From a bacterium (GTDB lineage: Bacteria; Verrucomicrobiota; Kiritimatiellia; CAIKKV01; CAITUY01), in NCBI GenBank assembly GCA_037132275.1, contig JBAXPK010000005.1:3122-67121 (forward strand): a stretch of 64,000 nt of DNA. Reading direction: 5' to 3'. Shown piece after piece: positions 10,612 to 64,000 of the stretch (position 1 is its first letter; every line of letters starts with the position of its first letter). The position numbers were made by a program, and so were the translations under genes. Under the pieces are notes generated by a model. The model was not told the origin of the DNA. It worked only from the letters and a program-made list of their open reading frames with translations, and did not search any database.

Positions 10612-10640
10612 CGGAGTTGATTTAGTAAAGGAGCACAGGG

Positions 10641-24803: not shown

Positions 24804-25370
24804 ATGGCGTTACAGGTTATTTCCCAGGCGATTCCCGAGGTCAAATTGATCATTCCGGATGTGTTCGGCGATTCCCGGGGGTTCTTCCAGGAAACCTTTC
24901 ATAGGGAGAAATACAGTGCCGCCGGTATTGCCGTGCCATTTGTCCAGGATAACTGGTCCCGCTCCATAAAAGGAACCCTGCGCGGGCTCCATTACCAGCT
25001 CGACAATCCGCAGGATAAACTGGTCTGGGTGGTTCGCGGTGAAATTTATGATGTCGCCGTGGACATTCGGCGTGACTCGCCCACCTTCGGAAAATGGGTG
25101 GGCGCCGTATTGTCCGAAACCAATCACCACCGCTTTTTTATTCCCGTCGGCTTCGCGCACGGGTTCTGTGTGTTGAGTGATGGGGCCGATTTCATGTATA
25201 AGTGCAGCAACTATTATTCCCCCAAGGATGAGAAGGGAATACTATGGTCCGATCCGGCCCTGGCCATTCCCTGGCCGATCGAGAGCCCGATCCTCTCGAA
25301 ACGGGACATCGGCCTGCTCCCTCTTAAGGATATGAGGCCGGAAGATCTTCCCGTCTATCCGACGTCATGA
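24804..25370 (+). CDS. rfbC: dTDP-4-dehydrorhamnose 3,5-epimerase
   Basis: 'RGFFQETF', 'LRGLHYQ' and 'KLVWVVRGEIYDVAVDIR' are RmlC cupin hallmarks. No rfbA/B/D nearby. Confidence 0.8.
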   Translation: MALQVISQAIPEVKLIIPDVFGDSRGFFQETFHREKYSAAGIAVPFVQDNWSRSIKGTLRGLHYQLDNPQDKLVWVVRGEIYDVAVDIRRDSPTFGKWVGAVLSETNHHRFFIPVGFAHGFCVLSDGADFMYKCSNYYSPKDEKGILWSDPALAIPWPIESPILSKRDIGLLPLKDMRPEDLPVYPTS

Positions 25371-29482: not shown

Positions 29483-29527
29483 AGTCGTCTCACTTTTTGC
29501 ATCTCACATTTCACGTCTCACGTCTTA
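29483..29527 (-). repeat. GTGAGAC-family heptanucleotide tandem array filling the 42-nt intercistronic spacer between the MFP and RND genes
   Basis: Minus-strand reading: GTAAGAC GTGAGAC GTGAAAT GTGAGAT GCAAAAA GTGAGAC GACT then the ATG of the RND gene. The MFP stop codon TAA is inside the first unit. Confidence 0.7.
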
Positions 29528-42488: not shown

Positions 42489-43565
42489 TCACTTCATCCA
42501 GATAGGCAGGAGCGCCCGCTCGATCCAGTAGGACAATACGGCTGTGATCGGGATAGTGAGCACCCATGCCCAGACGATGCGGCCCACAATACCCCATTTT
42601 ACGGCGCTGAGGCGTTTGGTGGCTCCGACCCCCATAATGGAGGTTGAGATGACGTGGGTGGTGGAGAGCGGGATGCCCCAATGGGTGGCTAGGGAAATCA
42701 CGGCGGCCGCCGTCGTTTGTGCCGCAAATCCGTGAATGGGCTGCATCCGCACAATCTTGTGTCCCATAGTTCGTATGATCCGCCAGCCGCCCGCAGCGGT
42801 TCCGGCCGCCATGGTCAGGGCGCATGTCACCTTGATCCAGGTGGCCACGGTAAACTCGGGGGTTCTCAGGAACTCCAGCCAAGGTGGTAGGGCCCCGAAG
42901 GAAGTGCTTTTGGTTGTGGCGGTGAAGAGGATGAGGGCGATGATCCCCATGGTCTTCTGGGCATCGTTTGTGCCATGACTGAAACTGATCCACGCGGCGC
43001 TCACCAGTTGGAGTTTGGAAAACACCTTGTTGATCAGCAGGGGGCGCATCTTGTGAAGCAGCACGACCAGCAGCGCCATCAGCAGGGCGCCAAAAACAAA
43101 CCCGACGGCGGGCGAGATAAACATAGGCATGATCACCTTGGGCCAGAGGCCTTCCATGTGCCCCGAGGCGGTGTTGGGAACGGCCCACCGGATGACGTGC
43201 CAGTTATCATGGGAGGACGCCAGGGTGGCGCCGCAGAGTCCGCCAATCAGGGCATGACTCGAACTGGATGGCAAACATAACCACCAGGTCAGCAGGTTCC
43301 ACACGATGGCGCCCAGCAGCGCGGCCAGAATGGTGTCAATGCCCACAAACTGGGTATCCACCAGTCCCTGGCCGATGGTCTTGGCCACAGCCACCCCAGC
43401 CATGGCGCCCAGCAGGTTGAAGCAGGTGGCCATGGCCACCGCCTGGCGCGGCGTTAACACTTTGGTTGAAACGGTGGTGGCGATAGAGTTGGCGGTGTCG
43501 TGGAAGCCGTTGATATACTCGAAGGCTAACGCGATCAGCAGCACTGTCAGGATAAGGATCAGCAT
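42489..43565 (-). CDS. pitA: inorganic phosphate transporter, PiT family
   Basis: PHO4 signature repeats 'GFHDTANSIATTV' and 'SFSHGTNDAQKTMGII'. Confidence 0.85.
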   Translation of the reverse strand: MLILILTVLLIALAFEYINGFHDTANSIATTVSTKVLTPRQAVAMATCFNLLGAMAGVAVAKTIGQGLVDTQFVGIDTILAALLGAIVWNLLTWWLCLPSSSSHALIGGLCGATLASSHDNWHVIRWAVPNTASGHMEGLWPKVIMPMFISPAVGFVFGALLMALLVVLLHKMRPLLINKVFSKLQLVSAAWISFSHGTNDAQKTMGIIALILFTATTKSTSFGALPPWLEFLRTPEFTVATWIKVTCALTMAAGTAAGGWRIIRTMGHKIVRMQPIHGFAAQTTAAAVISLATHWGIPLSTTHVISTSIMGVGATKRLSAVKWGIVGRIVWAWVLTIPITAVLSYWIERALLPIWMK

Positions 43566-43596: not shown

Positions 43597-44247
43597 TCAG
43601 GAATACTTGAGCACGACCTGGAAAATGATGTTGCCGACATCCCGGCAACGGTCGATGATTTTCTCCAGGGTTTCGTGGAGGTCAAGGATGATAATCACCT
43701 TCAAGGGATCATGTTTTCCACTATAGAGATCCTTGACAAGATCAAGCATCAGTTTGTCGGCCTCGCCCTCGAGATAATGGAGGCGGATATTGTATTCCTT
43801 CATTTCTTCGAGATGCGCCCGGGTTCGCAGTTTGGTCACCATTTGGGACACGGTCTCGGTGGTTTGCTCGAGAATGGTCGCCTGATCCAGGAAATTGGCG
43901 TCCTTCAGCATATCGGTGCAGAGCATGTACTTTTCGCTGAATTTCTCGGCGGTTTTCGGGATTTTGTAGAGTGCCAGGGAGAGGGACTCGATGTCCTCGC
44001 GCTCCAGCGGGGTCACGAAAGTTTTGCAAAGTTCTTCCGTGATCTGCTCCGTGATCCGCTTATCTTTCCGGCGGGAATGAATGAAATCGCCCATGGAGGT
44101 GATCCCCTCCGGCTTTTTTAGCAAGGTCAGCAGAAGCTGAACACTGGCTTTGGCCTCATCGGCACTGGCTTCAAGGAGGTCGAAAAACTTGTCGTCATAC
44201 CCGAGTAGTCGTCTGATAGCAGTTATCATGGGAAGAATTAATGCCAT
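43597..44247 (-). CDS. DUF47/TIGR00153-family protein (PhoU-like Pit accessory protein)
   Basis: 216-aa helical protein directly upstream of pit (31-nt gap), the canonical DUF47-PiT pairing. Confidence 0.7.
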   Translation of the reverse strand: MALILPMITAIRRLLGYDDKFFDLLEASADEAKASVQLLLTLLKKPEGITSMGDFIHSRRKDKRITEQITEELCKTFVTPLEREDIESLSLALYKIPKTAEKFSEKYMLCTDMLKDANFLDQATILEQTTETVSQMVTKLRTRAHLEEMKEYNIRLHYLEGEADKLMLDLVKDLYSGKHDPLKVIIILDLHETLEKIIDRCRDVGNIIFQVVLKYS

Positions 44248-44344
44248 AGAGCGTCAAAATAATCACGTCAATTCCGTGAATGAAAACGAAATTCTCATCA
44301 AACGCTCATTTTCCCCTTACAAAGATTGGTGATTATTCTGGAGT
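44248..44344. promoter_or_regulatory. AT-rich divergent promoter region (DUF47-pit <-> PHP-GT4) containing 11-bp-spaced direct repeats 'CTCATCAaacgCTCATTT' (44294-44311) and 'CGTCAA..CGTCAA'; weak Pho-box-like candidate
   Basis: Read directly. Two 7-nt half-sites separated by 4 nt mimic Pho-box geometry (CTGTCAT-N4-CTGTCAT), 34-51 nt upstream of the ATG at 44345. Sequence similarity to the consensus is partial. Confidence 0.3.
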
Positions 44345-46750
44345 ATGAAGCCAACATCATCAGGTTACACAAGCTCCATGAAGGCGGATCTTCATGTGCA
44401 CAGTAAGTATTCCGACCGGCCGACCGAATGGTTTCTGCGGCGGATCGGTGCGCCGGAATGTTTTGCCGAGCCGGAGGATGTGTATCGTGTCTGTCGGGAA
44501 AAGGGGATGGATTACGTTACCATATCGGATCACAACTGTATTGACGGAGCTCTTGAAATCGCCCATCTTCCGGGTACCTTTATCTCGGCGGAGTTGACCA
44601 CGTATTTCCCCGAGGATGGGTGCAAAATCCATTGCCTGGTACAGGATATCACCGAGCGGCAGTTTTCGGACTTACAGATCATCCGGAAGAATATCTACGA
44701 CCTGCGGAAATATCTGGCCGATGAAGCCATCCTCCATGTTATTGCGCATCCGTTGTTTCGGGTGAACGACGTGCTGACCGTCGAGCATGTTGAAAAACTG
44801 CTTTTGCTATTCGAGCGCTTTGAAGCCATCAACGGGTCACGCCACCCCAGGGCAGGGGATTTGACTGTAGCGCTGTTTTCCCAGCTTACCGAGGAGCAGA
44901 TTTGGGCCATGTCTGACCGGCATGGAATCCAGCCCTATGGCAAGACTACGTGGGTGAAACGTTTCACGGGAGGCAGCGATGATCACAGTGGTCTATACGC
45001 CGCCAGCGCTTATACGGTCACCCCCCCTGCCGATTCGGTGCAGGAATTCCTGGCGCATTTGCGTGCGGGGCGTCATGAACCCCGTGGAACTCCGGGCACC
45101 AGTTTACGCCTGGCACATAGTCTCTATCACATCGCTTACCAATATTATCGCAGCCGCCTTTTGAACCATGGGGCGGGATCCTCGGTACTTGGCGAATTAT
45201 TTAAGCGCCTGTTGAGCGGTTACGAAGAGCCGGAAAAAACGTCCGGGCCGGTCCGCGCCTGGGCGGAACGGGTCATCAAGAAATATCGTGTCCGAAAACT
45301 GAGTCCTGGGGAGCGGTTGATGGTGGAGTCATTTTCGAAATTGCGTGGGAATTCGGCTCCGGGTGGAGGATTGGTAGGTCGGCGTGTGGGGCCTGACGTC
45401 GAAAACTTTGCCACGGCCAGCCGGATCAGCCACGAACTCGGGTATGCGTTCCTGCAACAATTCCTCGGTCATGTGGAGGAAGGACGCCTGGTTGACGGAT
45501 TCCAGTCGCTGGCGTCGATGGGCACCGTGATGCTGGGGATCGCCCCCTATTTAACGGCGTTCGGGGTTCAGCATAAGGACGAGCGATTTCTGCAGGAAGC
45601 CGCCACCCGTCTCGGGGGAGGTCTCGTCTGTCCCGAGCGCAGTCATCGTCGCGCGTGGGTCACGGATACCTTCAGCGATGTGAACGGGGTGTCCCACACC
45701 ATCCGGATGCTCACTGAAAAAGCCCGTGGCCGCGGCTGGCCCATCACCGTCATGACAGCCATGGAATCCCCGCCCGACACCGGGACGGAAGCGGTCAATT
45801 TTCCTCCTTTGGGAACGTTTTCCCTGCCGGAGTATGATTCCCAAAAAATGGTATTCCCTCCCTTTCTGGATGTGATCGAAGCCTTGGAGCGGGGAAACTA
45901 TTGCGAGGTGATCATCTCGACTCCCGGCCCCATGGGGTTGACGGCGTTGATGGCCGCTCGACTTTTAGGCATCAAGTCTGCGGGTATCTACCACACGGAT
46001 TTTCCGAAATATGTCAAGTGCCTCACTCAGGATGAGTCGCTTGAGCAACTGGCCTGGAGATACATGGTGTGGTTTTATGGACAGATGGATCGGATTCATG
46101 TCCCGAGCGAGTATTACAGGAATCTTCTGGCCGAAAATGGCTTTGACAAGGCCCGGCTTAAAGTGTTGCCGAGAGGTGTGGATCTGACCCGTTTTAACCC
46201 CGGGAAACGCGATGGGAATTTCTGGAAGCGATATGGCCTCAATGGGAACCTCAAATTGCTGTATGTGGGGCGCGTCTCGAGAGAGAAGAACATCAAGACC
46301 CTGATCGACGCCTTCCAGATTGCGCGGACCACTACGCCCAATCTGGATTTGATCGTGGTTGGGGATGGCCCTGAACTCGCGACGTTCCGCCATCAACACA
46401 AGGACAGCAATATTTGTTTCACGGGTGTTCTTCACGGGGAGGAGCTGGCCACCGCGTACGCGAGCGCAGACCTGTTTGTGTTTCCGAGCGCGAGCGATAC
46501 CTTCGGCAACGTGGTGCTGGAAGCCCATGCGTCCGGTTTGCCGGCCATCGTTTCAACGCAGGGTGGTCCCGCCGAGATTGTTGCGCGAAATGGATCGGGC
46601 CTTGCCGTGGATGTGAGAACCCCGGCTCCCCTATGTGCCGGTATCCGGGATCTCGTTTGGGACGGCAATCGACGGGCTGATATGGGGCGAAGCGCTTTGA
46701 AAACGGCGCTTGAGATGAGTTGGGACAAGGCTCTCGATCAATTATTCTGA
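44345..46750 (+). CDS. fusion protein: N-terminal PHP (polymerase/histidinol-phosphatase family) phosphoesterase domain + C-terminal GT4 glycosyltransferase (801 aa)
   Basis: PHP motifs 'ADLHVHSKYSD', 'ISDHN', 'HPLF' and 'GGSDDHSG' in the first ~250 aa. GT4/GT-B motifs 'LLYVGRVSREKNIKTLIDAF', 'LIVVGDGPE' and 'FVFPSASDTFGNVVLEAHASGLPAIVS' in the last ~330 aa. Confidence 0.6.
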   Translation: MKPTSSGYTSSMKADLHVHSKYSDRPTEWFLRRIGAPECFAEPEDVYRVCREKGMDYVTISDHNCIDGALEIAHLPGTFISAELTTYFPEDGCKIHCLVQDITERQFSDLQIIRKNIYDLRKYLADEAILHVIAHPLFRVNDVLTVEHVEKLLLLFERFEAINGSRHPRAGDLTVALFSQLTEEQIWAMSDRHGIQPYGKTTWVKRFTGGSDDHSGLYAASAYTVTPPADSVQEFLAHLRAGRHEPRGTPGTSLRLAHSLYHIAYQYYRSRLLNHGAGSSVLGELFKRLLSGYEEPEKTSGPVRAWAERVIKKYRVRKLSPGERLMVESFSKLRGNSAPGGGLVGRRVGPDVENFATASRISHELGYAFLQQFLGHVEEGRLVDGFQSLASMGTVMLGIAPYLTAFGVQHKDERFLQEAATRLGGGLVCPERSHRRAWVTDTFSDVNGVSHTIRMLTEKARGRGWPITVMTAMESPPDTGTEAVNFPPLGTFSLPEYDSQKMVFPPFLDVIEALERGNYCEVIISTPGPMGLTALMAARLLGIKSAGIYHTDFPKYVKCLTQDESLEQLAWRYMVWFYGQMDRIHVPSEYYRNLLAENGFDKARLKVLPRGVDLTRFNPGKRDGNFWKRYGLNGNLKLLYVGRVSREKNIKTLIDAFQIARTTTPNLDLIVVGDGPELATFRHQHKDSNICFTGVLHGEELATAYASADLFVFPSASDTFGNVVLEAHASGLPAIVSTQGGPAEIVARNGSGLAVDVRTPAPLCAGIRDLVWDGNRRADMGRSALKTALEMSWDKALDQLF

Positions 46751-46751: not shown

Positions 46752-48470
46752 ATGGATCTCTTCATGATTGACGGGATCGGGCCCTTCTTTCTAGGGCATC
46801 CCAAGCGAACTGTAAACTGGTCCAAGATTCCCTTTTCCGCCCTGGAACGCAATGGCCATGTCAAAGCGGACGTGTTCAGGGAGATCCGGGAAGCCTTCAC
46901 CCGTTTTGCAGGCACGGCGGCCTCCCTTGGGTTCAATGCCATCTCGCTCGATGACCTGGCGCACTTGACCGACTCTTTCGCCTACCCGCCGCCCCTCCGG
47001 GACAGGATCGCCGCCTATCGGTATGAATTCGCGGCCCTTTTTGAAATTGCCCGGGCAGCGGGACTCCAGGTCTACATGACCACCGATATCTCGTTCTTTA
47101 ACCGGGAGTTGGATGAGCGACTGGGACGGGATGACAGCAAGATCATTCGGTTTCTGGGCGATGCTGTCGATGCCTTATTCCGGGATTTCCCCTCAGTCCA
47201 GGGGATTATCGCCCGTTTCGGGGAATCCGACGGACTGGATGTCCATGGCGATTTTCTGAGTCGGCAGATCTTGAGGACTCCCCGTCAGGCCCGCTGTTAT
47301 GTGGAGGCGCTATTGGCGGTGTGTGAAACCCGTCGCCGCACCCTGATCATGCGCACCTGGAGTCTGGGGGCCTATCGCATCGGAGATTTGATGTGGAACA
47401 GGAAAACCTACGAGGCGGTATTCACAGGGCTTGAACATCCCCGGTTGATTCTTTCCCTGAAATACGGGGAGACGGATTTTTTCAAATACGTTCCCCTCAA
47501 TCGCCATTTTCACGATGATTCCCGACACAACAAAATGATCGAACTTCAGGCCCGCCGCGAATACGAGGGGGGCGGGGAATACCCTTCTTTCATCGGCTGG
47601 GATTATGAGCGGTACGAAAAGGAACTGGCTTCCTGTCGCAATGTGGTGGGGGCTTGGATCTGGTGCCAGACGGGAGGATGGACGACATCGCGCCGGATTA
47701 CCTTTGTGAAGGATTCATCCCTCTGGAATGAGATCAATGTGGCGGTGACCATCAGGGTGTTCAAGGAGCACCAGGGGGTGGAGTCGGCGGTGCGGCAGTA
47801 TTGCGCCATTCATATGCCCGGTGTCCCTGCCGTGTCCCTGCTCGAATTACTCCGCCTTTCCTCTGAAGTGGTGTCCGAGTTACTATATGTGGATGACTAC
47901 GCCCGTTGTGCGGTCTATTTCAGGCGATTGAGGTTGCCTCCCCTCATGCATGTCTTGTGGGACGCCGTGTTCATCACTGATACGATGCGCATCTTTTTGC
48001 GTCACTTTGTGCGGGATTTGGAAGGGAAAATAAGTCAGGGGTACGAGGCTCTCCGCAAAATTCAGAGGATGATCGCGCTGGCGGAGGAGATGGGACTCCC
48101 TGCGGAGGGATTGAAAGCCCAGTATGCAGTCTATGAGGTTCTTGCGGTGGCGCGCGAATACTTCTTCAGGCCCGCCAATCCGGCGGTTGAAAGCCGGTTG
48201 CGCGGGCTCATCCGACGAATCCATCAATCCCCGGCGGAGAACCATTATGTGTTTGTCGTACGGTTCAACAGATCCTGGATGGGCGCCGGACTGATCCGCT
48301 TTGTTTTAAGGCATTTGCTTCGGCACCGACGGGCCTATCGTCTTGCAGATCGGCTTGTGCTGCTGCGGGTGCTGGCTTGGGTGGGGTGGGGACTCAAGTT
48401 TGTCCCGGCACACCGGCTTCCCCGGGTGGCGGTTTCGCAAGGGATGGGTCTTCGTCATTTCCTGAAATAG
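46752..48470 (+). CDS. conserved hypothetical protein (572 aa), function unknown; cytoplasmic
   Basis: Starts 1 nt after the PHP-GT4 stop (tight coupling). No recognisable family motif and no TM segment. Arg/Trp-rich C-terminus. Confidence 0.45.
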   Translation: MDLFMIDGIGPFFLGHPKRTVNWSKIPFSALERNGHVKADVFREIREAFTRFAGTAASLGFNAISLDDLAHLTDSFAYPPPLRDRIAAYRYEFAALFEIARAAGLQVYMTTDISFFNRELDERLGRDDSKIIRFLGDAVDALFRDFPSVQGIIARFGESDGLDVHGDFLSRQILRTPRQARCYVEALLAVCETRRRTLIMRTWSLGAYRIGDLMWNRKTYEAVFTGLEHPRLILSLKYGETDFFKYVPLNRHFHDDSRHNKMIELQARREYEGGGEYPSFIGWDYERYEKELASCRNVVGAWIWCQTGGWTTSRRITFVKDSSLWNEINVAVTIRVFKEHQGVESAVRQYCAIHMPGVPAVSLLELLRLSSEVVSELLYVDDYARCAVYFRRLRLPPLMHVLWDAVFITDTMRIFLRHFVRDLEGKISQGYEALRKIQRMIALAEEMGLPAEGLKAQYAVYEVLAVAREYFFRPANPAVESRLRGLIRRIHQSPAENHYVFVVRFNRSWMGAGLIRFVLRHLLRHRRAYRLADRLVLLRVLAWVGWGLKFVPAHRLPRVAVSQGMGLRHFLK

Positions 48471-48502
48471 AGGCGGTCACATTATTCTAACCAACCGCTC
48501 GC

Positions 48503-50371
48503 ATGGTTTTAACAGAAGCCGTCTATGATGACGGCATTATGCAAACTACTCATGCCCTTGACTGTCAGGTTATTCCGTCTGCCGCGTGGCCGTTGCCCGG
48601 CAGGGGAATAGCTCCAATGGCCAACCGTATTCTGGGAGGTGTTTTCCAGTTGGACAGGTTGGCCGGCCTGTATGAGGAAATCCGGGAGGACAATACGTCC
48701 CAGTCCTTTGTTGATCGGGCATTGGCCTGCCTTGACGTAAGCCACAACATTGTCCATGGCGGCCTTGAGGCCATTCCCCGGGAAGGCCCCCTTCTGGTGA
48801 TAGCCAATCACCCCTTTGGCGGAGTTGAGGGCCTGGTGTTGCTGAGCCTTCTGGCGGCCGTTCGACCGGATGTCAAAGTAATGGCCAACCAGCTGCTATC
48901 GGCCATTCCAGAGCTTCACAAGCATATGATCCTGGTGGATCCTTTTGGTGGTTCCAGGGCGACGGGAAATAATCTAGCCCCTGTACGGCAGAGTTTGCGA
49001 TGGCTCAAAAACGGCGGCGCGCTGGGCGTGTTTCCCTCGGGCGAAGTGGCGCATTTCGATTTGGCCCGAAGGCGGATTTGCGAATCCGAGTGGTCTCTGA
49101 CTATTGCCCGTCTGATGCGGCATAGCGGGGCGGCCGTGCTTCCCGTCTTTTTCGACGGGGCGAATGGCCCGCTCTTCCAGATGGCAGGCCTCATTCATCC
49201 CCGGTTGCGGACGGCAATGCTCATCCGGGAGATGGTCAACAAGACGGGCCACTCGCTGAAGGTGAGTATTGGCAGGGTTCTTCCGCATGCCAAATTGGAA
49301 ACTATTCAGGATGATGCGGAACTTACCCGTTACCTGAGGATGCGTGTCCAATTGCTCGGGCAGGTCGGGGTGGTGACCCGTATCCGGAAGACTGGGCGGG
49401 CATGGGGTGGGCGCACGGCGCCCGTGGCCTCTGCCGGAGCGGCCGGAGATCTAGCGCGGGAAGTGGCCTGGCTTTCGCCGGAACAGAAATTAGCGGAAAC
49501 GAGCGGTTACCAGGTGTATATCGCCGGTGCCAACCAGATTCCCGGCGTGCTCCGCGAAATCGCGCGTTTACGCGAGGTGACGTTCAGGGCTGTCGGGGAG
49601 GGAACAGGGCACGCCCAAGATATGGATGTATTCGACAGGTTCTACCAGCACTTGTTTGTATGGAACGAAAATAAATCAGAAGTGGTTGGGGCGTATCGCC
49701 TGGGTCTGACAGATAAAATTCTTTCCCAATTCGGAGTGGATGGGCTCTATACCAGCACCCTTTTCAAGTATAAATGGAATACGATCGAAGCGTTGAGTCC
49801 CGCGATTGAAATCGGGCGATCCTTTGTCCGCCAGGAATACCAACGCAAACATCTTCCCCTCCTTCTGCTTTGGAAGGGGATTGGCGCGTATGTGGCCAGG
49901 AATCCGAAATACCGGAACCTGTTCGGAACGGTCAGCATGAGTAATCAGTATAACGAGACCTCGCGTCAATTGGTGGCCCATTTCTTCGAGCAGGAGAAGC
50001 TCAACCAACCCATCCAATTGTCGGTGCGTCCGAGAAATCCATTAAGAATGAAAGGGACGCCTGTGGGGGACGCGAGGGGGCCTGTCTGTCGTATCCCCGG
50101 TTTGGAAGCCCTCTCCGAGATGGTAAGCGAAATCGAGGAGGATGGAAAAGGAATCCCCGTGCTGATGCGGCAGTATATGAAACTGGGGGGGCGGGTATTG
50201 GCCTGCAATGTGGATCCCAAATTTAACATGGCGCTCGATGCGCTTCTGGTGGTGGATTTGACCCGCACCGATCCCCGGTTTCTTGAACTCTACATGGGGA
50301 CGATGGCGGCAGGGTATCTCCGCCATCATGGGGTGGGGGCCAGCGAGGAAAGGCAGGCCCAATGTGCCTGA
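48503..50371 (+). CDS. OlsF-like bifunctional acyltransferase: N-terminal lysophospholipid-acyltransferase (PlsC/LPLAT) domain + C-terminal OlsB-like GNAT (Acetyltransf_5) N-acyltransferase domain; candidate aminolipid (ornithine/lysine/glycine lipid) synthase
   Basis: LPLAT motifs 'LVIANHPFGGVEG' (block I-like) and 'GVFPSGEV' (FPEGT-like block III). C-terminal ~250 aa ('YRLGLTDKIL...YTSTLFKY...IEIGRSFVRQEYQRK..LLLLWKGIGAYV') resembles OlsB/hemolysin-like GNATs. The combination equals the OlsF architecture. Confidence 0.5.
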   Translation: MVLTEAVYDDGIMQTTHALDCQVIPSAAWPLPGRGIAPMANRILGGVFQLDRLAGLYEEIREDNTSQSFVDRALACLDVSHNIVHGGLEAIPREGPLLVIANHPFGGVEGLVLLSLLAAVRPDVKVMANQLLSAIPELHKHMILVDPFGGSRATGNNLAPVRQSLRWLKNGGALGVFPSGEVAHFDLARRRICESEWSLTIARLMRHSGAAVLPVFFDGANGPLFQMAGLIHPRLRTAMLIREMVNKTGHSLKVSIGRVLPHAKLETIQDDAELTRYLRMRVQLLGQVGVVTRIRKTGRAWGGRTAPVASAGAAGDLAREVAWLSPEQKLAETSGYQVYIAGANQIPGVLREIARLREVTFRAVGEGTGHAQDMDVFDRFYQHLFVWNENKSEVVGAYRLGLTDKILSQFGVDGLYTSTLFKYKWNTIEALSPAIEIGRSFVRQEYQRKHLPLLLLWKGIGAYVARNPKYRNLFGTVSMSNQYNETSRQLVAHFFEQEKLNQPIQLSVRPRNPLRMKGTPVGDARGPVCRIPGLEALSEMVSEIEEDGKGIPVLMRQYMKLGGRVLACNVDPKFNMALDALLVVDLTRTDPRFLELYMGTMAAGYLRHHGVGASEERQAQCA

Positions 50372-50414
50372 GTTGCGTCACAGGCGAAATCGTGATCTAC
50401 GCAATCTGACAGGC

Positions 50415-50906
50415 TTGCTGGCAACGCTCGGTGTGTTGGCGACGGTTTTCGCGAAAGTTGAAATTCAGATTGAAGGAGCTGCAGGGTGGGCGGCCAACCT
50501 GCCCACATGGCGGCTTGAACACCATTGGGTGCTCGATCTTATCTGGGGTGGACGTCCTTTGACCGGGTATCACGTTTGGGTTTTTCTGTTCATGGCCCTG
50601 GTTTTTCACCTGATGTTTTTTATTCATGGCCGCTATGCCATTCGTCTTGAACTCCGGGTGCTGGGGAGTTTGGCGGTATTCTGGATATTGGAAGATTTTC
50701 TCTGGTTTGTGATGAATCCCGCCTACGGTTTGTCAAGATTCAACCCGCAGTGCATTCCTTGGCACCACCATTGGATGTTGGGTATTCCTGTGGATTATGT
50801 CGTGTATCTGGCCGTGGGGATCCTGATGCTCTGGCTTTCCATCCGGCGGCGCAAGCTGGCGTCACGCCCTGTAGCGGTTCGTGATGCCATTCCGGGGAAA
50901 TTATGA
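50415..50906 (+). CDS. small polytopic membrane protein (about 4 TM, unknown function), translationally coupled to the downstream GT28
   Basis: The track ORF (50283) overlaps the upstream gene by 89 nt, and the first in-frame ATG would delete TM1. Start placed tentatively at in-frame TTG 50415 (alternatives GTG 50433, TTG 50436). Hydrophobic, W/H-rich helices. Stop overlaps the next ATG (ATGA). Confidence 0.35.
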   Translation: MLATLGVLATVFAKVEIQIEGAAGWAANLPTWRLEHHWVLDLIWGGRPLTGYHVWVFLFMALVFHLMFFIHGRYAIRLELRVLGSLAVFWILEDFLWFVMNPAYGLSRFNPQCIPWHHHWMLGIPVDYVVYLAVGILMLWLSIRRRKLASRPVAVRDAIPGKL

Positions 50907-52024
50907 AGATCCTGATTCTCCATGCCTCGGCCGGGGCCGGGCATCGGCGTGCGGCGGAGGCCCTCGCGGCAGCCTGTCTACAGGAAGGGATTCAGCCTAT
51001 CGTGCATGACATTTTGGAATTCACCCCACCGCTCTTTCGGACCACTTATGCTGCGGGATATTTGAACATGGTGCGATCCGCCCCTGAGCTTTGGGGCTAC
51101 CTCTATTCGCTGACGGATCGGAAAAGCCAGACACCTTGGCACCGGCGAATCCGAACCACATTCAATAAGCTAAACACCAAGTCATTTGAACGCTTCCGCC
51201 GGGAACTCCAGGCGGATGCGGTGATCTGTACCCATTTTCTCCCCTTGGAAATACTGGGGCGGCGTCGTCCGAAGGACGCAGGTAAGGTGCCTCTGTTTGG
51301 GGTGGTCACGGATTTTGCGGCCCATTCATTGTGGTCATGCCCAAACGTGGACGGATATTTTACTGGATGCGAAGAGGCACGTCGGCAGTTAATTCGGATG
51401 GGCCAGCCGCCTGGACGTGCCTGGGTGACAGGGATTCCGATTTCCCCCGAGTTCGTCCCCCCGGCCGATGTCGTTAATTTGCGTATTCGCATGGGCTTGG
51501 CTCCCGATCTCCCGGTCATCCTAATATTGTGCGGCGGATTCGGTGTCGGAGCGATTGTGGATGTATTGGGTGCTTTTGCCAAAGAGCCGCTTCAGGCACA
51601 ACTGGTGGTGGTGACCGGCAATAATGAAGCGTTACGGGATCGGGCGGCCCGGAAGGCCAGGGAGTTGACGATGCCAGTGATGTTGCATGGATTCGTCTCG
51701 AATATTCATGAATTGATCGGTGTGGCCGATGTGGTCATCAGCAAGCCGGGCGGTTTGACTTCGGCGGAGGTTCTGGTGATGGGGTGCCCGCTTGTGATCA
51801 TGGATCCCATTCCCGGACAGGAGCAGAGGAATGGGGAATATCTGCTTGAAAACGGGGCGGCGGTTCGATTGGTGGATCCCTGGGATGCCCCGTTCAAGGT
51901 TTGGCCGATTCTGGAAAATCATGAACGCCGCCGCTCTATAAGTGCGGCCGCCCTACGTCTGGCCAAGCCGGATGCCGCCCGGGTGATTGTGCGGGAGGTG
52001 GCGAGGCAGGTTGGCAGAGTCTAA
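50903..52024 (+). CDS. MGDG-synthase-like GT28 glycosyltransferase (diacylglycerol glycosyltransferase; UgtP/MGD-type)
   Basis: N-terminal 'KILILHASAGAGHRRAAEAL' (MGDG_synth) and C-terminal GT28 'VISKPGGLTSAEVLVMGCPLVIM.PIPGQEQRN'. Confidence 0.7.
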   Translation: MKILILHASAGAGHRRAAEALAAACLQEGIQPIVHDILEFTPPLFRTTYAAGYLNMVRSAPELWGYLYSLTDRKSQTPWHRRIRTTFNKLNTKSFERFRRELQADAVICTHFLPLEILGRRRPKDAGKVPLFGVVTDFAAHSLWSCPNVDGYFTGCEEARRQLIRMGQPPGRAWVTGIPISPEFVPPADVVNLRIRMGLAPDLPVILILCGGFGVGAIVDVLGAFAKEPLQAQLVVVTGNNEALRDRAARKARELTMPVMLHGFVSNIHELIGVADVVISKPGGLTSAEVLVMGCPLVIMDPIPGQEQRNGEYLLENGAAVRLVDPWDAPFKVWPILENHERRRSISAAALRLAKPDAARVIVREVARQVGRV

Positions 52025-52104
52025 GGATTTACGCCTGGTTCGTCTCACCAATTTCTAACAATAAATCCGTTTCCTTTTCGCTGACGGTTGCTTACGATGA
52101 GGCC

Positions 52105-52791
52105 ATGGTCAAGAAACATATCGTGTTCGTTGAAGATGAGCCGGATATTGCCGATTTGCTTTCCTATAACCTGACCCGGGATGGGTATGAGGTTACGGGG
52201 CTTTCCAATGGGGAACAGGCGATGCAAATCATTCCCCGGAAGAAGCCCCATCTTGTTTTGCTGGATCTGATGTTACCCGGTATGAGCGGCTTGGAAATTT
52301 GCCGCTTGCTCAAGGCCAAGCCTGAAACGGCAACGATCCCCATTATCATGGTCACCGCCAGGGGCGAGGAAACGGATGTGGTGGTCGGATTGGAGATGGG
52401 GGCGGACGATTATGTTGCCAAGCCTTTCAGCATGAAGGTGCTCCTGGCCCGGATTCACAGCGTGCTTCGGCGGCGCGAAAAGGGACCCGCCAAGACAGAT
52501 GATGTGCTTAAAGTTCATGACATCATGATCAATCCCGGGCGTCACGAGGTCGTGTGCGGGAAAGCCTCGATCGAGTTGACGGCCTCGGAATTCCGGCTGC
52601 TCCATTTCCTGGCGCAGCGGCCGGGATGGGTGTTTACCCGCGAACAGATTGTAGATGGCGTGAAGGGGGAGGATTATGCGGTGACCGATCGGGCGGTGGA
52701 TGTTCAGGTGGTTTCCCTGCGGCGCAAGCTCGGGAAACGCGGGGATTATGTCGAGACGGTGCGCGGGGTGGGGTATCGCTTCAAGGAGTGA
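52105..52791 (+). CDS. phoB: OmpR/PhoB-family response regulator (REC + winged-helix)
   Basis: REC 'IVFVEDEPDIADLL...LDLMLPGMSGLE...ARGEETD...GADDYVAKPFS' and wHTH '...VGYRF'. Assignment as PhoB is by context (PiT/DUF47 upstream, PhoR-like kinase downstream). Confidence 0.7.
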   Translation: MVKKHIVFVEDEPDIADLLSYNLTRDGYEVTGLSNGEQAMQIIPRKKPHLVLLDLMLPGMSGLEICRLLKAKPETATIPIIMVTARGEETDVVVGLEMGADDYVAKPFSMKVLLARIHSVLRRREKGPAKTDDVLKVHDIMINPGRHEVVCGKASIELTASEFRLLHFLAQRPGWVFTREQIVDGVKGEDYAVTDRAVDVQVVSLRRKLGKRGDYVETVRGVGYRFKE

Positions 52792-54581
52792 TGATGCGGT
52801 CTAAACGTTTATTCTGGCGAATCTATGCTTATTTTTTGATGGCGACCCTCGGTGCCTTGGTGGCGACCGCCTGGTATGCCGACCATTTATTGTACACCTT
52901 TCATCAAAATCAGGTTACCGCTGATCTTCTGGCCCGCGCCCAGATCATCGCGCGGGAACTGACGCCTCCCTTGGATCATGGCGATGATCCGGTTGCCTTG
53001 GATAAAATGTTCAAGGAGTTGGGGCGGCTGACGATGTCTCGTATCACGATCATCCTGCCCGATGGCCGGGTTATCGCGGATTCTTCGGAGAATCCGGCGA
53101 CGATGGAAAATCATCGTAACCGGCCTGAAGTCGATGCCGCGCTGGCCGGGAGGACGGGGCAATCCTTGAGGTATAGCGATACGCTTCGGCGGCGGTTGAT
53201 GTATCTGGCCATTCCGGTATGGAAAGACGGGTCAGTGGCTGGCGTGGTACGCGTCTCGCTTCCGCTGGCGGTTGTGGATGAAACCATCAGAACCCTGTAT
53301 CGCGACATTGCCCTTGGCGGCCTTGTGGTGGCCGGGGTGTTTGCCGTGTTGGCTCTGGCCATTTCCCGCCGGATCACCCGGCCGTTGGAATATATGCGGC
53401 AGGTTTCCGAGCAATTTGCACAGGGGGAGTTGGCGGCCCGTATCCCTGTGCCTGATACGGACGAAATGGCGTCTCTGGCGCGCACGATGAACCAGATGGC
53501 GGCGCAGCTTCATGAAAGGGTGCGTACCGTGGCCCTTCAGCACAACGAGCAGCGCGCCGTTCTGGCCAACATGGTCGAGGGGGTTCTGGCGGTGGATGTG
53601 GCGGAACATATCCTGCACATCAATCCCGCCGCCTGCCGGTTGCTGGGCCTCAAGCCGGACGAGGGCCGGGGGCGCCATATCCTCGAAATAGTGCGCAATA
53701 TAGACCTGCAGGAGTTCCTGGTTGAAACCTTGAGCGCCGCCGGTCCCACGGAGCGGGAAATTGTGCTTCGCGGCGATGCCGAACTGGTTATCCAACTGCA
53801 TGGTGCCGTCCTGAAAAATGCGGATGGCGCCAACATTGGGGCGCTGGTGGTGATGAACGATATCACCCGCATGAAGCGGTTGGAATCGATGCGCCGTGAT
53901 TTTGTCGCCAACGTTTCGCATGAACTCAAGACCCCGATCACAACCTTGAAGGGCTGTGTCGAGACCCTGTCCGAGGGGGCGGTGCATAACCCTGAGGAAT
54001 CAAGGCATTTTCTGGAGATGATGGGCCGCCATGTGCATCGCCTGGAAGCCATGGTCGAGGATCTCCTGGTTCTATCGCGTCTGGAGTATGAGTCGGAGCG
54101 CGGCGACATTGTGTTGGAACCCGGAGCCATTCAAGATGTTTTGGCGCGTGCCGTTCAGGCTTTTGCGAAGCGGGCGGAGGCCCGGGGGATTCTGCTGGTC
54201 ATGGATTGCCCGGATTCCTTGAGGGCCTTGATCAATGCGCCGCTCCTGGAGCAGGCGGTTGGAAATCTGTTGGATAACGCGATCAAGTACAGTTCAGAAG
54301 AGACGCGTATCAACGTGACAGCGGTTCAGGCGGATACCTGTATTGAGATTCGCGTAGCCGACCAGGGACCGGGTATCGAGAAGAAACACTGGGGCCGAAT
54401 TTTTGAGCGATTCTACCGCGTGGATCAGGCCCGCAGTCGCGCCATGGGTGGCACCGGCCTCGGACTGGCGATCGTAAAACATATTGCCATTGCCCATCAC
54501 GGTAGCGTTTCCTTGGAAAGTGTTCCCGGGCAGGGCAGTACATTCATGCTGCGCGTGCCGACCCACGCCGCTCCGTCATGA
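52791..54581 (+). CDS. phoR: PhoR-like sensor histidine kinase (2 TM, HAMP, PAS, HisKA, HATPase_c)
   Basis: Start at 'MMRSKRLFWRIYAYFLMATLGALVA' overlapping the phoB stop by 1 nt. H-box 'FVANVSHELKTPITTLKG'. N/G-boxes 'LLDNAIKYS', 'DQGPGIEKKHWGRIFERFYRVD' and 'GTGLGLAIVKHIA'. Confidence 0.75.
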   Translation: MMRSKRLFWRIYAYFLMATLGALVATAWYADHLLYTFHQNQVTADLLARAQIIARELTPPLDHGDDPVALDKMFKELGRLTMSRITIILPDGRVIADSSENPATMENHRNRPEVDAALAGRTGQSLRYSDTLRRRLMYLAIPVWKDGSVAGVVRVSLPLAVVDETIRTLYRDIALGGLVVAGVFAVLALAISRRITRPLEYMRQVSEQFAQGELAARIPVPDTDEMASLARTMNQMAAQLHERVRTVALQHNEQRAVLANMVEGVLAVDVAEHILHINPAACRLLGLKPDEGRGRHILEIVRNIDLQEFLVETLSAAGPTEREIVLRGDAELVIQLHGAVLKNADGANIGALVVMNDITRMKRLESMRRDFVANVSHELKTPITTLKGCVETLSEGAVHNPEESRHFLEMMGRHVHRLEAMVEDLLVLSRLEYESERGDIVLEPGAIQDVLARAVQAFAKRAEARGILLVMDCPDSLRALINAPLLEQAVGNLLDNAIKYSSEETRINVTAVQADTCIEIRVADQGPGIEKKHWGRIFERFYRVDQARSRAMGGTGLGLAIVKHIAIAHHGSVSLESVPGQGSTFMLRVPTHAAPS

Positions 54582-57387: not shown

Positions 57388-57418
57388 GATGTGAGATGTG
57401 AGGCGTGAGACGTGAGTT
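57384..57418 (+). repeat. five tandem heptanucleotide units GTGAGAT/GTGAGAT/GTGAGGC/GTGAGAC/GTGAGTT spanning the serS stop codon and the tilS start codon
   Basis: Read directly: 'gtgagatgtgagatgtgaggcgtgagacgtgagtt'. The serS TGA (57385-57387) and the GTG start of tilS (57405) are both inside the array. The first tilS residues (M-R-R-E-L) are encoded by the units. Confidence 0.75.
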
Positions 57419-58838
57419 AGCCATTAACCAGGCTTCCCTCCCGACGGGGGGGCATATCCTTGTGGCCGTGTCTGGCGGGGCGGATTCGGTGGCGCTGCTT
57501 CATGGTCTTCACTCGGTGGCGAAACGCAACCGGTGGCGGTTGACGGTGGCACATCTTGAGCATGGCATTCGGGGACAGGCTTCCCTGGCAGATGCCGCAT
57601 TTGTACGGGCATTGGCCCGGCGCTTGAAAATTTCCTGCATTGTGGGGAAGGTTAAAGTACCCGCATTGGCGAATAAAAAGGGAATTTCGCTTGAGATGGC
57701 CGCCCGGCAGGCTCGGTATGCCTTTCTGGCGCGGACGGCTCGCCGGGTAAGTGCGGACGTGATGGCAACGGCCCACACGGCCGATGATCAAGTTGAAACG
57801 ATGTTGATCAAGTTTCTTCGCGGGGCGGGACGGGGTGGCCTCTCCGGAATGGAGGCGACGGCATCTGTTTCCGGAATACCGATTATCCGGCCCCTGCTTC
57901 ACTCCACACGCGCTGAAATCGAGACGTATCTGCGTGCCCGGAAATGCCCTTGGCGTGAGGATGAAACGAACACCGACAGGGCTTTCCTGCGAAATCGCAT
58001 CCGGCATGAATTGCTTCCCCAACTGGAGCGGGATTTCAATCCGGGAATCCGCCAGACGTTACTGCGCACCCGTGATGTGCTGGCGACGGAAGACGAGTGG
58101 ATGGATGCCGTGGCGAGGGGAATCATGGCGGAGTGCCTTGACGAGGGGGATTCCAGGGCCGTGACGTTAAGAAGTGAGCGCTTAAAGGGATACCCCCTGG
58201 CCGCCAGGCGGCGAGTGGTTCGTCTATGGCTGTTTGGGCAGGGTGTCCCGGAACTGTGTCTGGACTTTGATGCCGTGTCGCGAGTGGAACGGCTTGCGGG
58301 AAAAACTTCAGGAAGTGGAACCGTCGTGTTGTCGGCTGGCTGGCGTGTGAGGCGGCACTATGGGTGCTTAACGGTTAGCGAGGATACACGTTTAGCGGAT
58401 GCCGTTATACGAGTGCCGTTGAAAATCCCCGGAATAACGGTGATTCCGGAATGGGGGATAGTGATGACAACGACGCTGGGGCCGGGGGTTGAAAAAGAAA
58501 GGGGCGGCGGCCCGGGAATATATCCGGCGAAGGCCAGCTTGAATGCCGCCATATGGGCGAAACGGACGATGTGGATCCGGGGTTGGCAGCCTGGTGACAA
58601 GATGATTCCATTTGGTATGAAGGGATCCCGAAAGGTGCAGGATATTCTGGGGGATGCGAAAATTCCGCGTTCAGAGCGCGTCAAAGTTCCGGTTGTGGAG
58701 TGTAACGGGGAGATCGTCTGGATTCCCGGATACCGGATTGCCGCCAGGTGGGCCATTGAGAAACCCGGCCAGATGAATGTGCAGGCGACTGTTGCTCCCC
58801 TGCATAATCCACTTGTGCGGAATAGGGGGCGGGGATAG
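57405..58838 (+). CDS. tilS: tRNA(Ile)-lysidine synthetase
   Basis: PP-loop 'ILVAVSGGADSVALLH' and TilS C-terminal domain. GTG start. Confidence 0.75.
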   Translation: MRRELAINQASLPTGGHILVAVSGGADSVALLHGLHSVAKRNRWRLTVAHLEHGIRGQASLADAAFVRALARRLKISCIVGKVKVPALANKKGISLEMAARQARYAFLARTARRVSADVMATAHTADDQVETMLIKFLRGAGRGGLSGMEATASVSGIPIIRPLLHSTRAEIETYLRARKCPWREDETNTDRAFLRNRIRHELLPQLERDFNPGIRQTLLRTRDVLATEDEWMDAVARGIMAECLDEGDSRAVTLRSERLKGYPLAARRRVVRLWLFGQGVPELCLDFDAVSRVERLAGKTSGSGTVVLSAGWRVRRHYGCLTVSEDTRLADAVIRVPLKIPGITVIPEWGIVMTTTLGPGVEKERGGGPGIYPAKASLNAAIWAKRTMWIRGWQPGDKMIPFGMKGSRKVQDILGDAKIPRSERVKVPVVECNGEIVWIPGYRIAARWAIEKPGQMNVQATVAPLHNPLVRNRGRG

Positions 58839-58880: not shown

Positions 58881-59477
58881 ATGAATATGATGCGTTCGAT
58901 TGTGGGTGCGGTAACGGTGTCTTTGTCGGCGATCATGGCGCATGCCGCCGGGGAAGCGGCTTATTTGGTGAAGATCACCGGTTTTGATCGAAAGCCGGAG
59001 GTGCAAGTGATGTCGGCGGCGGATTACAAGGCGTTCGAAAAGACGATCAAGGCCGAGCAAAGATACTTCTCTGAGGCCGTCTCTCAGGTTGCCAAAGAAT
59101 GGCGTGCTGATGAACTCAATAAGGGCATACCTTTCGCGGGAAACAAGTTGGTGCCTCGCGCCATTGTGGGGACCGCCGAAAAGTATATTTCATTGGACAG
59201 GGCAAACGAGGCTCTTTCGAAGATTGAGGAGCAGCAGGCAAAGCGAGAAGAGCGCGAGCTTAAAACCAAAAAGAATAAAACGCCATCCAAAGATCAGTTA
59301 AAGAAAGACTCTGAGTTAAGCCAGGCGGCGGAGTTGGTTAAAGTGAAATTGGATGATATGATCGCCAAAGGAACTACCCCTGGGACCGGAGTCCAAAATG
59401 CGGCCCCCGGCGCTAATAATATGGAGGCTGGCGGCGTCAAGTTGAATGCCGCAGCAAACAAAGCCGGAAATAAATGA
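58881..59477 (+). CDS. secreted lysine/glutamate-rich hypothetical protein (198 aa) with signal peptide
   Basis: Signal peptide 'MNMMRSIVGAVTVSLSAIMAHAAG'. Low-complexity charged C-terminal half. The stop overlaps the next start (ATGA). Confidence 0.4.
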   Translation: MNMMRSIVGAVTVSLSAIMAHAAGEAAYLVKITGFDRKPEVQVMSAADYKAFEKTIKAEQRYFSEAVSQVAKEWRADELNKGIPFAGNKLVPRAIVGTAEKYISLDRANEALSKIEEQQAKREERELKTKKNKTPSKDQLKKDSELSQAAELVKVKLDDMIAKGTTPGTGVQNAAPGANNMEAGGVKLNAAANKAGNK

Positions 59478-63800: not shown

Positions 63801-64000
63801 GAACTTCCCCGCCGAAATCGGGCCGCAACCCACCGTGGTGGCGGAAGGGGATGGTCTGAGGGCGAAGCACAACCTTGCCGGCATCGAAACGGATATTCAT
63901 ATCGCGTTGCCCGAGGCGGGACTGGCGCTTGAGGCTTGGACAGTGACGCTGCGCAATACCGGATCCCAGGCCCGTTCATTGTGCATGGCCCCCTATGTCG
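60820..64000 (+). CDS. 5'-complete, 3'-truncated ORF of more than 1060 aa, absent from the supplied ORF track: signal peptide + large polytopic membrane domain (~900 aa) + beginning of a GH94-like glycoside-phosphorylase domain (continues beyond the window)
   Basis: Translated manually codon by codon in frame 1 from the ATG at 60820 ('MMIVWIVCLAMLAAPFSRADG...') to position 64000 with no stop. An in-frame TAG at 60805 closes the frame upstream. The last ~100 aa ('GIETDIHIALPEAGLALEAWTVTLRNTGSQARSLCMAPYV') align with the GH94 N-terminal region of the gene at 10641 ('GIRADVTYLAPLEDDVLLWSVRLTNNSRSPRRLKLTSYME'). Confidence 0.65.
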   Translation, partial: MMIVWIVCLAMLAAPFSRADGFLSQASQRGVFQIAGAQATLLQSNQTWQLRFSLPPGAAAGVWAKYGHADGLPAQAQALRYDFELAPETPVPLSVSWEIKGESGVQAVPLVLRARSGRGEVFLDESRLGVWHETVLVVAHPGGVANLSGQLDIRAEFVQWAPWRRVVFSPWGRWLGLLVAAFLSAAVAGRACRRPVRVAMTGWARDLAAGFACVLGVGSVLAILGTAETSPGRFPFTPMLAALAGAWMAGIFTRLWAGRGPTVSETFQHALLPGVLAMAAGDVAIWTAAGQWTALGQMTRLGAVVFWALYHVANARRLATARRPLEAAVGARMVAIPFIFGILLLLPNRDLMLQAGAILVPRAWAAPELLVFTGRALILVVFNLAAALACGGRWTVGHIKVLIPVAVAAVGSPLIANAGSGTFAVPALLQPLVAIVATMLSQGLLWAEAYLLTGMMLDAMHGRQFQSTTLSDYARKGLRNGVVFSGWFMGLLHAGLLLYSSPLWIQAYKTAPLLAWACLGAMIFPLIKTIIESFDGSPAFDQRLLRNYRRPTLALRGAIAGACMAWAWNHHFIEWTLPDRAGWGFAAGVAIYAGMSWVSDAARAVTGHGRVAGWRLYAVEALLGGMVGAALGFYFDASQTPVVANKLTVYLGFGLPPLPYDVTPLLSRWGLLSLGHYTGGARLLWNEALAGVISWGVAAWLFALNKSFLMALFQREWAPVRRLFSRDGMAELADGTIFVLRWGLWMAPIIFTFLRQMSVPTWYNQDGAIHTLCCIVQNGFSDAHAFEAWSLKVFMWVLAYDAFRTLIWLDHMGLRVATLVNLSFLGMDRLDDRVARFLGPHAAARFIPEGIKRFTTWAPLLLPFYIPAGAAWNQVWDESKAVQLATAPWIERVWAQSLAWGVSEAVGLLLGVTLIAALVRQRGRRGGAAAVELRNSVYAFSLQPGGAPRAEFLPQRLDVHRRSYEGRDPAGRALFLAEADPVQAGRWNVWPVLGNFPAEIGPQPTVVAEGDGLRAKHNLAGIETDIHIALPEAGLALEAWTVTLRNTGSQARSLCMAPYV

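Follow-up and report, generated by a model that had tools for sequence, protein, structure and literature searches.

The stretch of DNA analyzed here, referred to as the window, comprises 64,000 nucleotides of contig JBAXPK010000005.1 (GenBank assembly GCA_037132275.1). On its forward strand, an open reading frame (ORF) that begins with an ATG at position 48503 and ends at 50371 (622 aa) encodes a protein resembling the bifunctional ornithine lipid synthase OlsF, and the gene lies among genes for phosphate transport, glycolipid synthesis and a two-component system. An earlier note on this DNA, made from the sequence without database searches, had described the gene as a fusion of a lysophospholipid acyltransferase (LPLAT) domain with an OlsB-like GNAT domain, pointing to the blocks ANHPFGGVEG and GVFPSGEV in the N-terminal half. 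Both blocks are present in the ORF, as IANHPFGGVEG (residues 100–110) and GVFPSGEV (residues 175–182), and the N-terminal half matches the Pfam families Acyltransf_2 (PF19576, E = 1.6e-9, residues 85–280) and Acyltransferase (PF01553, E = 6e-6). For the C-terminal half, the Pfam match is to Acetyltransf_5 (PF13444, E = 2e-22, residues 356–457). Domain and Pfam residue ranges are given in the numbering of the 622-aa product, and His91, Glu97 and the invariant columns in that of a 610-aa form described below. The NCBI record of the same 622-aa product, called by the prokaryotic annotation pipeline PGAP, is MEI6562983.1, named only "GNAT family N-acyltransferase [bacterium]".

The best NCBIfam model for the protein was OlsF itself (NF052615), which aligned from end to end (400.8 bits, E = 9.8e-120, profile positions 36–568 of 570). 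In the same scan, the GlsA model matched the N-terminal half (residues 55–282, 69.4 bits, E = 2.7e-19, cutoff 260), the GlsB model matched the C-terminal half (residues 328–563, 131.4 bits, E = 3.5e-38, cutoff 300), and two OlsB models matched the C-terminal half only (56.1 bits, E = 4.5e-15, and 45.1 bits, E = 8.4e-12, cutoffs 320–350). The earlier note had made its reading depend on a profile alignment of the C-terminal domain to OlsB-family GNATs; that alignment was found, and the reading stands. A plain sequence search of the Protein Data Bank (PDB) with the protein returned zero matches even at E = 1; only the comparison of folds gave matches. An AlphaFold model built from a 49-sequence alignment (predicted local distance difference test score, pLDDT, 85.3; predicted template modeling score, pTM, 0.82) consists of two domains with a low-confidence linker at about residues 284–300 between them. 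Foldseek searches of the PDB placed the N-terminal half with PlsC (5kym, E = 1.4e-5), the plant glycerol-3-phosphate acyltransferases (GPATs) 1k30 and 1iuq, and PatA, and the C-terminal half with GNATs, among them FeeM (2g0b, target-normalized TM-score 0.62), which is an N-acyl amino acid synthase, as well as an acyl-homoserine lactone synthase and MesI (6wns). By these comparisons, the LPLAT or PlsC-like O-acyltransferase domain occupies 48755..49342 (+) and the OlsB/GlsB-like GNAT N-acyltransferase domain 49484..50191 (+), and the combination of an LPLAT-type O-acyltransferase and an OlsB-like N-acyltransferase that marks OlsF is found in one polypeptide.

The conserved residues of the family are in place. 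All 68 of the 68 invariant columns of the 49-sequence alignment are present in the window protein, including N90, H91, P92, G94, G98, F165, P166, G168 and V170. Compared with 19 homologues from five lineages, the protein has the expected OlsF blocks, with NHPxGxx[D/E]G and FPxGEV in the first domain and FRxVGEGT, AYR and ELGRSF in the second. The FPSGEV block, equivalent to LPLAT block III (FP[AS]GEV), lies at 49031..49048 (+), in a column conserved in 20/20 sequences.

Two observations count against a straightforward assignment to OlsF. At 400.8 bits, the protein does not reach the 620 bits that NCBIfam has set as its curated equivalog cutoff, and it is only 31–36% identical to homologues from Gammaproteobacteria and Bacteroidota, the two groups to which the heterologously characterized enzymes belong. 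When ten relatives were scored against the same model, only gammaproteobacterial proteins passed the cutoff (Opacimonas, 809.5; Psychromonas, 791.4). Falling below it, as the window protein does, were homologues from Odoribacter (402), a Cryomorphaceae metagenome-assembled genome (MAG; 361), Fundidesulfovibrio (389), Terriglobia (387), Balneolales (416) and a Phycisphaerales MAG (430), the close homologue P0006 from a lake MAG (388), and P0115 (427). Since expression or a mutant has demonstrated the function of OlsF in Bacteroidota and Desulfovibrionales (PMC4484230, PMC5193443), lineages that likewise score below 620, the cutoff appears to reflect how the model was built and not a functional boundary. 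We therefore rejected the sub-cutoff score as a bar to membership, as Bacteroidota and Desulfovibrionaceae homologues fail it too. Identity to the Desulfovibrionaceae homologue P0049 (Fundidesulfovibrio) is 51%.

Database names suggest another reading, in which the protein is no aminolipid synthase at all and acts as a lysophospholipid acyltransferase or a hemolysin-type protein acyltransferase. Many homologues are labeled "putative hemolysin" or "lysophospholipid acyltransferase family protein", and the N-terminal fold is indeed PlsC/GPAT-like. Against this, such labels are legacy annotations known to occur on OlsF homologues (PMC4484230), the OlsF profile match is co-linear across both domains, the C-terminal fold is that of N-acyl amino acid synthases of the OlsB/GlsB/FeeM type, and no toxin or hemolysin gene was found near the OlsF-like gene. 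We regard this reading as very improbable. On the evidence of profile, fold and conserved blocks, the gene product is a predicted acyltransferase with two domains that belongs to the known OlsF family, as an ordinary new member of it.

The start of the gene has been placed at three different codons: 48503 in the PGAP call, 48617 in the shorter JGI/ENA call (584 aa), and a start giving about 610 aa in most close homologues, whose N-terminus reads MQTTH. When the upstream DNA of the window was aligned with that of five related loci, an ATG at 48539 proved to be kept in 6/6 sequences, and the ATG at 48503 not to be conserved. From 48539 onward, variable columns fall 12/10/22 by codon position (26 columns each), an enrichment at third positions. 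No codon periodicity was found between 48503 and 48538 in the six-sequence alignment (variable 9/12, 7/11 and 8/11). Because the conserved ATG and the onset of third-position variation coincide, we take 48539 as the start, and the true gene is then predicted to be 48539..50371 (+), 610 aa, with neither 48503 nor 48617 favored. The extent of 48503–50371 in the earlier note is thus right as an ORF, and its start is displaced.

Some further features of the gene ends were seen. Positions 48518–48535, between a TAACAG hexamer and the ATG at 48539, form an inverted repeat with perfect 6-bp arms (GCCGTC-TATGAT-GACGGC), and the related locus L002 has a comparable GGCGC...GCGCC inverted repeat. A conserved Cys-Ala dipeptide (e.g., ERQAQCA; 50360–50371 in the window) forms the C-terminus of most homologues that are at least 59% identical and of a few distant ones (noted in P0001–P0038, P0086, P0107 and P0115), and several Desulfovibrionaceae-like homologues terminate in SA.

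The first LPLAT block merits separate treatment, as the earlier note had flagged its H-x5-E spacing as a departure from the canonical H-x4-D. The block (HPFGGVE; His91 and Glu97, or H103 and E109 in 622-aa numbering) lies at 48809..48829 (+), and the canonical LPLAT/PlsC pattern H-x4-D is indeed replaced by H-x5-E. It is not aberrant, however. NHPxGxx[D/E]G, with an invariant His and a spacing one residue longer than the textbook motif, occurs in all 20 aligned family members; the acidic position is Asp in the sequences from Gammaproteobacteria and Bacteroidota and Glu in the clade of the window protein and in Acidobacteriota. Among the nearest 120 database homologues, 115 have Glu and four have Asp, and one lacks the region. 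Carriers of Glu include P0049, and in Desulfovibrionaceae olsF has been genetically validated. In the AlphaFold model, His91 follows strand 85–89 and helix 95–108 has Glu97 in its first turn, the topology expected, to the extent that the model is right, of a catalytic dyad. We considered H-x5-E as the mark of an inactive or aberrant domain and rejected it, because H-x5-[D/E] is family-wide and Glu is found in 115/120 homologues. Judged by its conservation, H-x5-E is a conservative lineage variant with no sign of a loss or change of function, and H-x5-[D/E] is the normal predicted catalytic signature of the OlsF/GlsA acyltransferase family; as such, it should help the annotation of acyltransferases of this type, which for this gene has stopped at the GNAT label of NCBI.

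The OlsF-like gene forms part of a cluster in which a PHO4/Pit-type transporter gene and a PhoU_div-like gene on the reverse strand are followed, on the forward strand, by genes for a family 4 glycosyltransferase (GT4), a 572-aa protein, the OlsF-like protein, a membrane protein, a family 28 glycosyltransferase (GT28), a response regulator and a sensor kinase. Five full related loci keep the GT4, 572-aa-protein, OlsF and GT28 genes together. The PhoU/Pit and regulator/kinase pairs are also retained in L002 and L003 and can be traced in part in L006 and L022. Scans for sigma-70 promoters and intrinsic terminators gave matches at chance level only.

The transporter gene lies at 42489–43565 (−; PF01384; PitA model, E = 1e-44) and the divergent PhoU_div-like gene (PF01865) at 43597–44247 (−); both are kept in L002, L003 and L022. 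The GT4 gene (44345..46750, +) encodes 801 aa, with GT4 Pfam domains at residues 446–785. The N-terminal ~430 residues of this protein (44345–45640; DLHVHSKYSD and GGSDDH) belong to a family of 1583 representatives, most of them fused to GT4. Members of the family match the Pfam families PHP (15/23) and PHP_C (9/23), with a best E of 1.7e-5; the match of the window copy is marginal, and a profile of the region searched against the PDB gave a marginal PHP match only (3e0f, E = 0.71). On the strength of the matches of its relatives, the region suggests a divergent metal-dependent phosphoesterase of the PHP type fused to a glycolipid-type glycosyltransferase.

The 572-aa protein (46752..48470, +) matched no family in Pfam or NCBIfam scans. 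It has neither a signal peptide nor a transmembrane (TM) segment, and its homologues, about 1380, are labeled "hypothetical". Its predicted structure (pLDDT 87) best resembles the family 67 glycoside hydrolases (GH67) 1gql and 1l8n, alpha-glucuronidases (E = 4e-14, query-normalized TM-score 0.50–0.56, 12% identity). It is consistently paired with a GT4 protein of about 795 aa in the distant PVC genomes of Pontiella desulfatans (L026) and a Spartobacteria MAG (L028), and one further distant contig has the order GT4, 572-aa-type protein, OlsF.

Downstream of the OlsF-like gene lies a gene for a His-rich membrane protein of about 180 aa (50364..50906, +). Its start is uncertain: a GTG at 50364, which overlaps the OlsF stop by 8 nt, has upstream AGGAAAGG, and the database call of 115 aa from 50559 seems too short. 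The protein has four predicted TM helices, the conserved His clusters GYHVW, FHL, IHGR and WHHHW, and a EIQIEGAAGWAANLPTWR motif. A Pfam scan at E = 10 gave no match. It is conserved in L002, L003, L005 and L007. L004 and L008 gave no match to it, and in these two loci OlsF is followed after about 86 bp by the GT28 gene. That gene (50903..52024, +; PF06925, E = 7e-27; PF04101) encodes a glycolipid glycosyltransferase resembling monogalactosyldiacylglycerol (MGDG) synthase and UgtP, which scored 212.7 bits, below cutoff, on the diglucosyl-diacylglycerol synthase model. Three uncharacterized families, namely the PHP-GT4 fusion, the four-TM protein and the protein with a GH67-like fold, are candidate lipid-remodeling factors, and as such they offer a more novel lead than the OlsF gene itself.

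The cluster ends with an OmpR-family response regulator gene (52105..52791, +), for which PhoB was the top of 104 families (TIGR02154, 257.3 bits, cutoff 296.2), and a PhoR/PnpS-like sensor histidine kinase gene (52794..54581, +) with HAMP, PAS, HisKA and HATPase_c domains. The kinase scored 370.5 bits on the PnpS model (cutoff 400) and 299.2 on PhoR (cutoff 334.2), and it also resembles WalK.

Three direct repeats precede genes of the cluster. The first, TTCTCAT-CAAA-CGCTCAT (44292..44309, +), lies in the intergenic region between the divergent PhoU-like and GT4 genes and is kept in seven loci, also in those whose DNA upstream of it is different. The second, TTCTAAC-CAAC-CGCTCGC (48485..48502, +), lies upstream of the OlsF-like gene and is kept in 6/6 aligned sequences; across these sequences the site takes the form TTCTAAC-N5-SCTCAY and lies 37–54 bp 5′ of the OlsF start. 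About 7 nt beyond each of these two sites stands a TAACAG-like hexamer, which is TAACAG itself at the OlsF site. A third repeat, TCTCAC-CAATT-TCTAAC (52043..52059, +), was found by motif scan upstream of the PhoB-like regulator gene. With 7-bp direct repeats, an 11-bp periodicity and a TCAY core, these candidate operators have, as read from the DNA, the architecture of a Pho box.

The generalized half-site pattern KCTMAY-N5-KCTMAY occurs four times in the window against 0.17 expected, and none of 100 shuffles reached four. Two of the four matches precede the GT4 and regulator genes, and the pattern recurs at two matching positions in related loci. A stricter motif with two mismatches allowed showed no enrichment in the window (6 found, 7.1 expected), and the repeats carry weight only through the generalized pattern and their conservation across loci. 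The other two perfect matches lie at 29477–29493 (+), where a gene for an AcrB-like RND pump begins, and at 57405–57421 (−), between serS and tilS; these may be chance occurrences.

We consider it most likely, by analogy with known Pho systems, that the cluster is switched on at low phosphate by the adjacent PhoB/PhoR-like pair acting through the candidate Pho-box-like repeats. There are precedents for Pho control of olsF in other organisms: a Pho box precedes the gene in Serratia, and expression of Vibrio VC0489 needs PhoBR (PMC12971839). Several points speak against this part of our interpretation. Pho regulation of the cluster itself is argued from analogy; the regulator and kinase score just under the cutoffs of PhoB/PhoR-type equivalogs; the OlsF site, which fits the generalized pattern perfectly in L002, L005 and L022, has one mismatch in the window; and two of the four perfect matches in the window lie near unrelated genes.

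These points leave room for an OlsF whose cluster is expressed constitutively or answers to temperature, pH or salinity, with the repeats binding a non-Pho regulator of the OmpR family. The sub-cutoff scores of the two-component pair and the likeness of the kinase to WalK and PnpS are compatible with this, as are two precedents, the induction of a second Vibrio olsF at low salinity and the high ornithine lipid content reported for marine Desulfovibrio species without phosphate limitation (PMC12971839, PMC5193443). It is nevertheless unlikely in our judgment: PhoB is the top-scoring family of the regulator, the divergent PhoU-like and Pit genes share the first repeat site, the repeat has the architecture of a Pho box, and the cluster joins two classic classes of phosphorus-free substitute lipid.

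The host is a Kiritimatiellia-like member of the Planctomycetes-Verrucomicrobia-Chlamydiae (PVC) superphylum and lies outside Proteobacteria and Bacteroidota. The closest homologues of the OlsF-like protein are 65–77% identical and come from lake MAGs labeled "bacterium" or "uncultured Verrucomicrobiota bacterium", and the nearest named relatives of the SerS protein of the window, at 70–72% identity, are from "Verrucomicrobia" and "Kiritimatiellae/Kiritimatiellia" MAGs. In ENA, the window corresponds to the 74-kb metagenome contig ERZ27300037 k141_507748. The earlier note had reasoned that a host outside the two phyla would extend the distribution of the route. The host does lie outside them, but the known range of OlsF is barely extended, because homologues from PVC orders have already been catalogued: OlsF homologues are listed from Lentisphaerales, Tepidisphaerales, Verrucomicrobiales, Puniceicoccales, Terriglobales, Balneolales and others (PMC12971839). 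Ornithine lipids or unidentified aminolipids of the superphylum are known chemically, in Akkermansia and Kiritimatiella, with no validated biosynthetic gene there. The window thus provides a candidate gene for the synthesis of an aminolipid, probably an ornithine lipid, in Kiritimatiellia-like PVC bacteria.

Taking these results together, we put at roughly 0.75 the probability that this is the gene for a bifunctional acyl-oxyacyl aminolipid synthase of the OlsF family within a phosphate-starvation lipid cluster. With the order of reactions and the roles of the domains taken over from characterized OlsF enzymes, a lyso-aminolipid would be made first, the amino acid being most likely ornithine and possibly also lysine. 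The N-terminal PlsC-like domain would then, through His91 and Glu97 of NHPFGGVEG, attach a second fatty acid to the 3-hydroxyl in ester linkage. This would give a phosphorus-free membrane lipid which, together with the glycolipids of the two neighboring glycosyltransferases, could replace phospholipids when phosphate is scarce. Lipid replacement of this kind, with olsF and agt, has been described in Desulfovibrio alaskensis, where an olsF (Dde_3661) mutant contained no ornithine lipids under phosphate limitation (PMC5193443). The cluster and its operator-like repeats may serve as a model of phosphate-sparing membrane remodeling in abundant freshwater polysaccharide degraders.

The headgroup is probably ornithine, by analogy with related enzymes and lineages. 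Ornithine is favored because every OlsF characterized so far makes ornithine lipid (PMC5193443, PMC12971839), because ornithine lipids are documented in Akkermansia (PMC12710885), and because the chemistry of Kiritimatiella agrees: whole-cell hydrolysates of Kiritimatiella glycovorans contain ornithine, and the organism also has an aminolipid, two glycolipids and C16:0 3-OH (PMC5148204). Weighing on the other side, the OlsF of Flavobacterium johnsoniae produces lysine lipids as well as ornithine lipids (PMC4484230), and PVC homologues have been catalogued "without functional evidence" (PMC12971839). The earlier note had left the headgroup undefined, and rightly so, as it cannot be read from the sequence; to our knowledge, there is no set of residues that predicts it.

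A product of the same family and chemistry with another amino acid, such as a lysine, glycine, glutamine or serine-glycine lipid, has a small chance of being the main one. The isolated C-terminal domain scores higher on the GlsB model than on either OlsB model (131 against 56 and 45 bits), F. johnsoniae OlsF sets a precedent for lysine, and reviews allow other amino acids for OlsB and OlsF homologues (PMC12971839, PMC12493201). The GlsB score is nonetheless far under its cutoff of 300, and on that same model still higher scores (173 and 157 bits) were obtained by gammaproteobacterial homologues that pass the OlsF cutoff, which indicates shared ancestry and not specificity. The consistent yield of ornithine lipid from characterized OlsF enzymes and the chemistry of Kiritimatiella and Akkermansia also argue for ornithine.

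A wider proposal, which we find rather unlikely, is that PVC bacteria have a "phosphorus-free membrane" module, controlled by PhoB and not described before, to which OlsF belongs. The PHP-GT4 fusion would act as PlcP and Agt in one, freeing diacylglycerol from phospholipid and then glycosylating it. The cytoplasmic GH67-like protein, a constant partner of GT4, and the four-TM protein would carry out new headgroup-remodeling or lipid-modifying steps. If this were true, the OlsF product would explain the whole-cell ornithine of Kiritimatiella and Lentisphaerae, which has been tentatively ascribed to peptidoglycan.

Elsewhere in the window, positions 931–13016 form a dense carbohydrate-utilization region with genes for a PfkB kinase, a GH29 alpha-L-fucosidase, GH2 and GH115 enzymes, a hydrolase of GH63/MGH1-like type and a GH94 phosphorylase; a first 13 kb so rich in glycoside hydrolases is in line with the lifestyle of a PVC polysaccharide degrader. 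About 19 kb from the lipid cluster, a gene at 25367–26332 (+) encodes a calcineurin-like metallophosphoesterase (Pfam Metallophos, E = 2e-10), a member of the superfamily to which the phospholipase PlcP belongs. Sizeable ORFs without a Pfam family at the thresholds used lie at 6102–7052 (−), 16694–18013 (+), 58881–59477 (+), 61195–62013 (−) and 63473–63979 (−). Neither Rfam nor tRNA scans of the window returned a match, and they therefore supplied no taxonomic marker.

Among known systems, the window gene is closest to the OlsF proteins of Serratia proteamaculans, F. johnsoniae, Vibrio cholerae (VC0489 and VCA0646) and D. alaskensis (Dde_3661), with which it shares the order of the two domains and their blocks. 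It differs from the gammaproteobacterial and Bacteroidota homologues in having Glu where they have Asp in the H-x5 block. Like Serratia olsF, which has a Pho box upstream (PMC12971839), it is preceded by a Pho-box-like element. In D. alaskensis, agt (Dde_3613) and olsF (Dde_3661) have distant locus tags, whereas in the window olsF is clustered with glycolipid genes.

The classical ornithine lipid route uses two enzymes, of which OlsA is a classical LPLAT with H-x4-D. OlsB and OlsA of Sinorhizobium meliloti perform the same chemistry and are regulated by PhoB in that organism (PMC12971839); the window instead has one protein, whose C-terminal domain is a distant OlsB homologue (56 bits against a cutoff of 350). 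GlsB and GlsA, which make glycine lipid in Bacteroides, are homologous to the C-terminal domain and the N-terminal domain, respectively, and likewise work by N-acylation followed by O-acylation (PMC12971839). They are separate proteins, whereas the window domains are fused and score far under both cutoffs (131/300 and 69/260).

PlcP, a calcineurin-like metallophosphoesterase, provides the last comparison. The PlcP-Agt operons of marine heterotrophs join a phosphoesterase and a GT4 in association with a Pho box (PMC4796936), and the window has a PHP-like-GT4 fusion close to an MGDG-synthase-like glycosyltransferase. PlcP is a separate protein, whereas the putative phosphoesterase of the window is fused to GT4, and the cluster adds a GH67-like protein and OlsF. 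We offer as a hypothesis only that the PHP-GT4 fusion in this Pho-like cluster recalls the pairing of PlcP with Agt.

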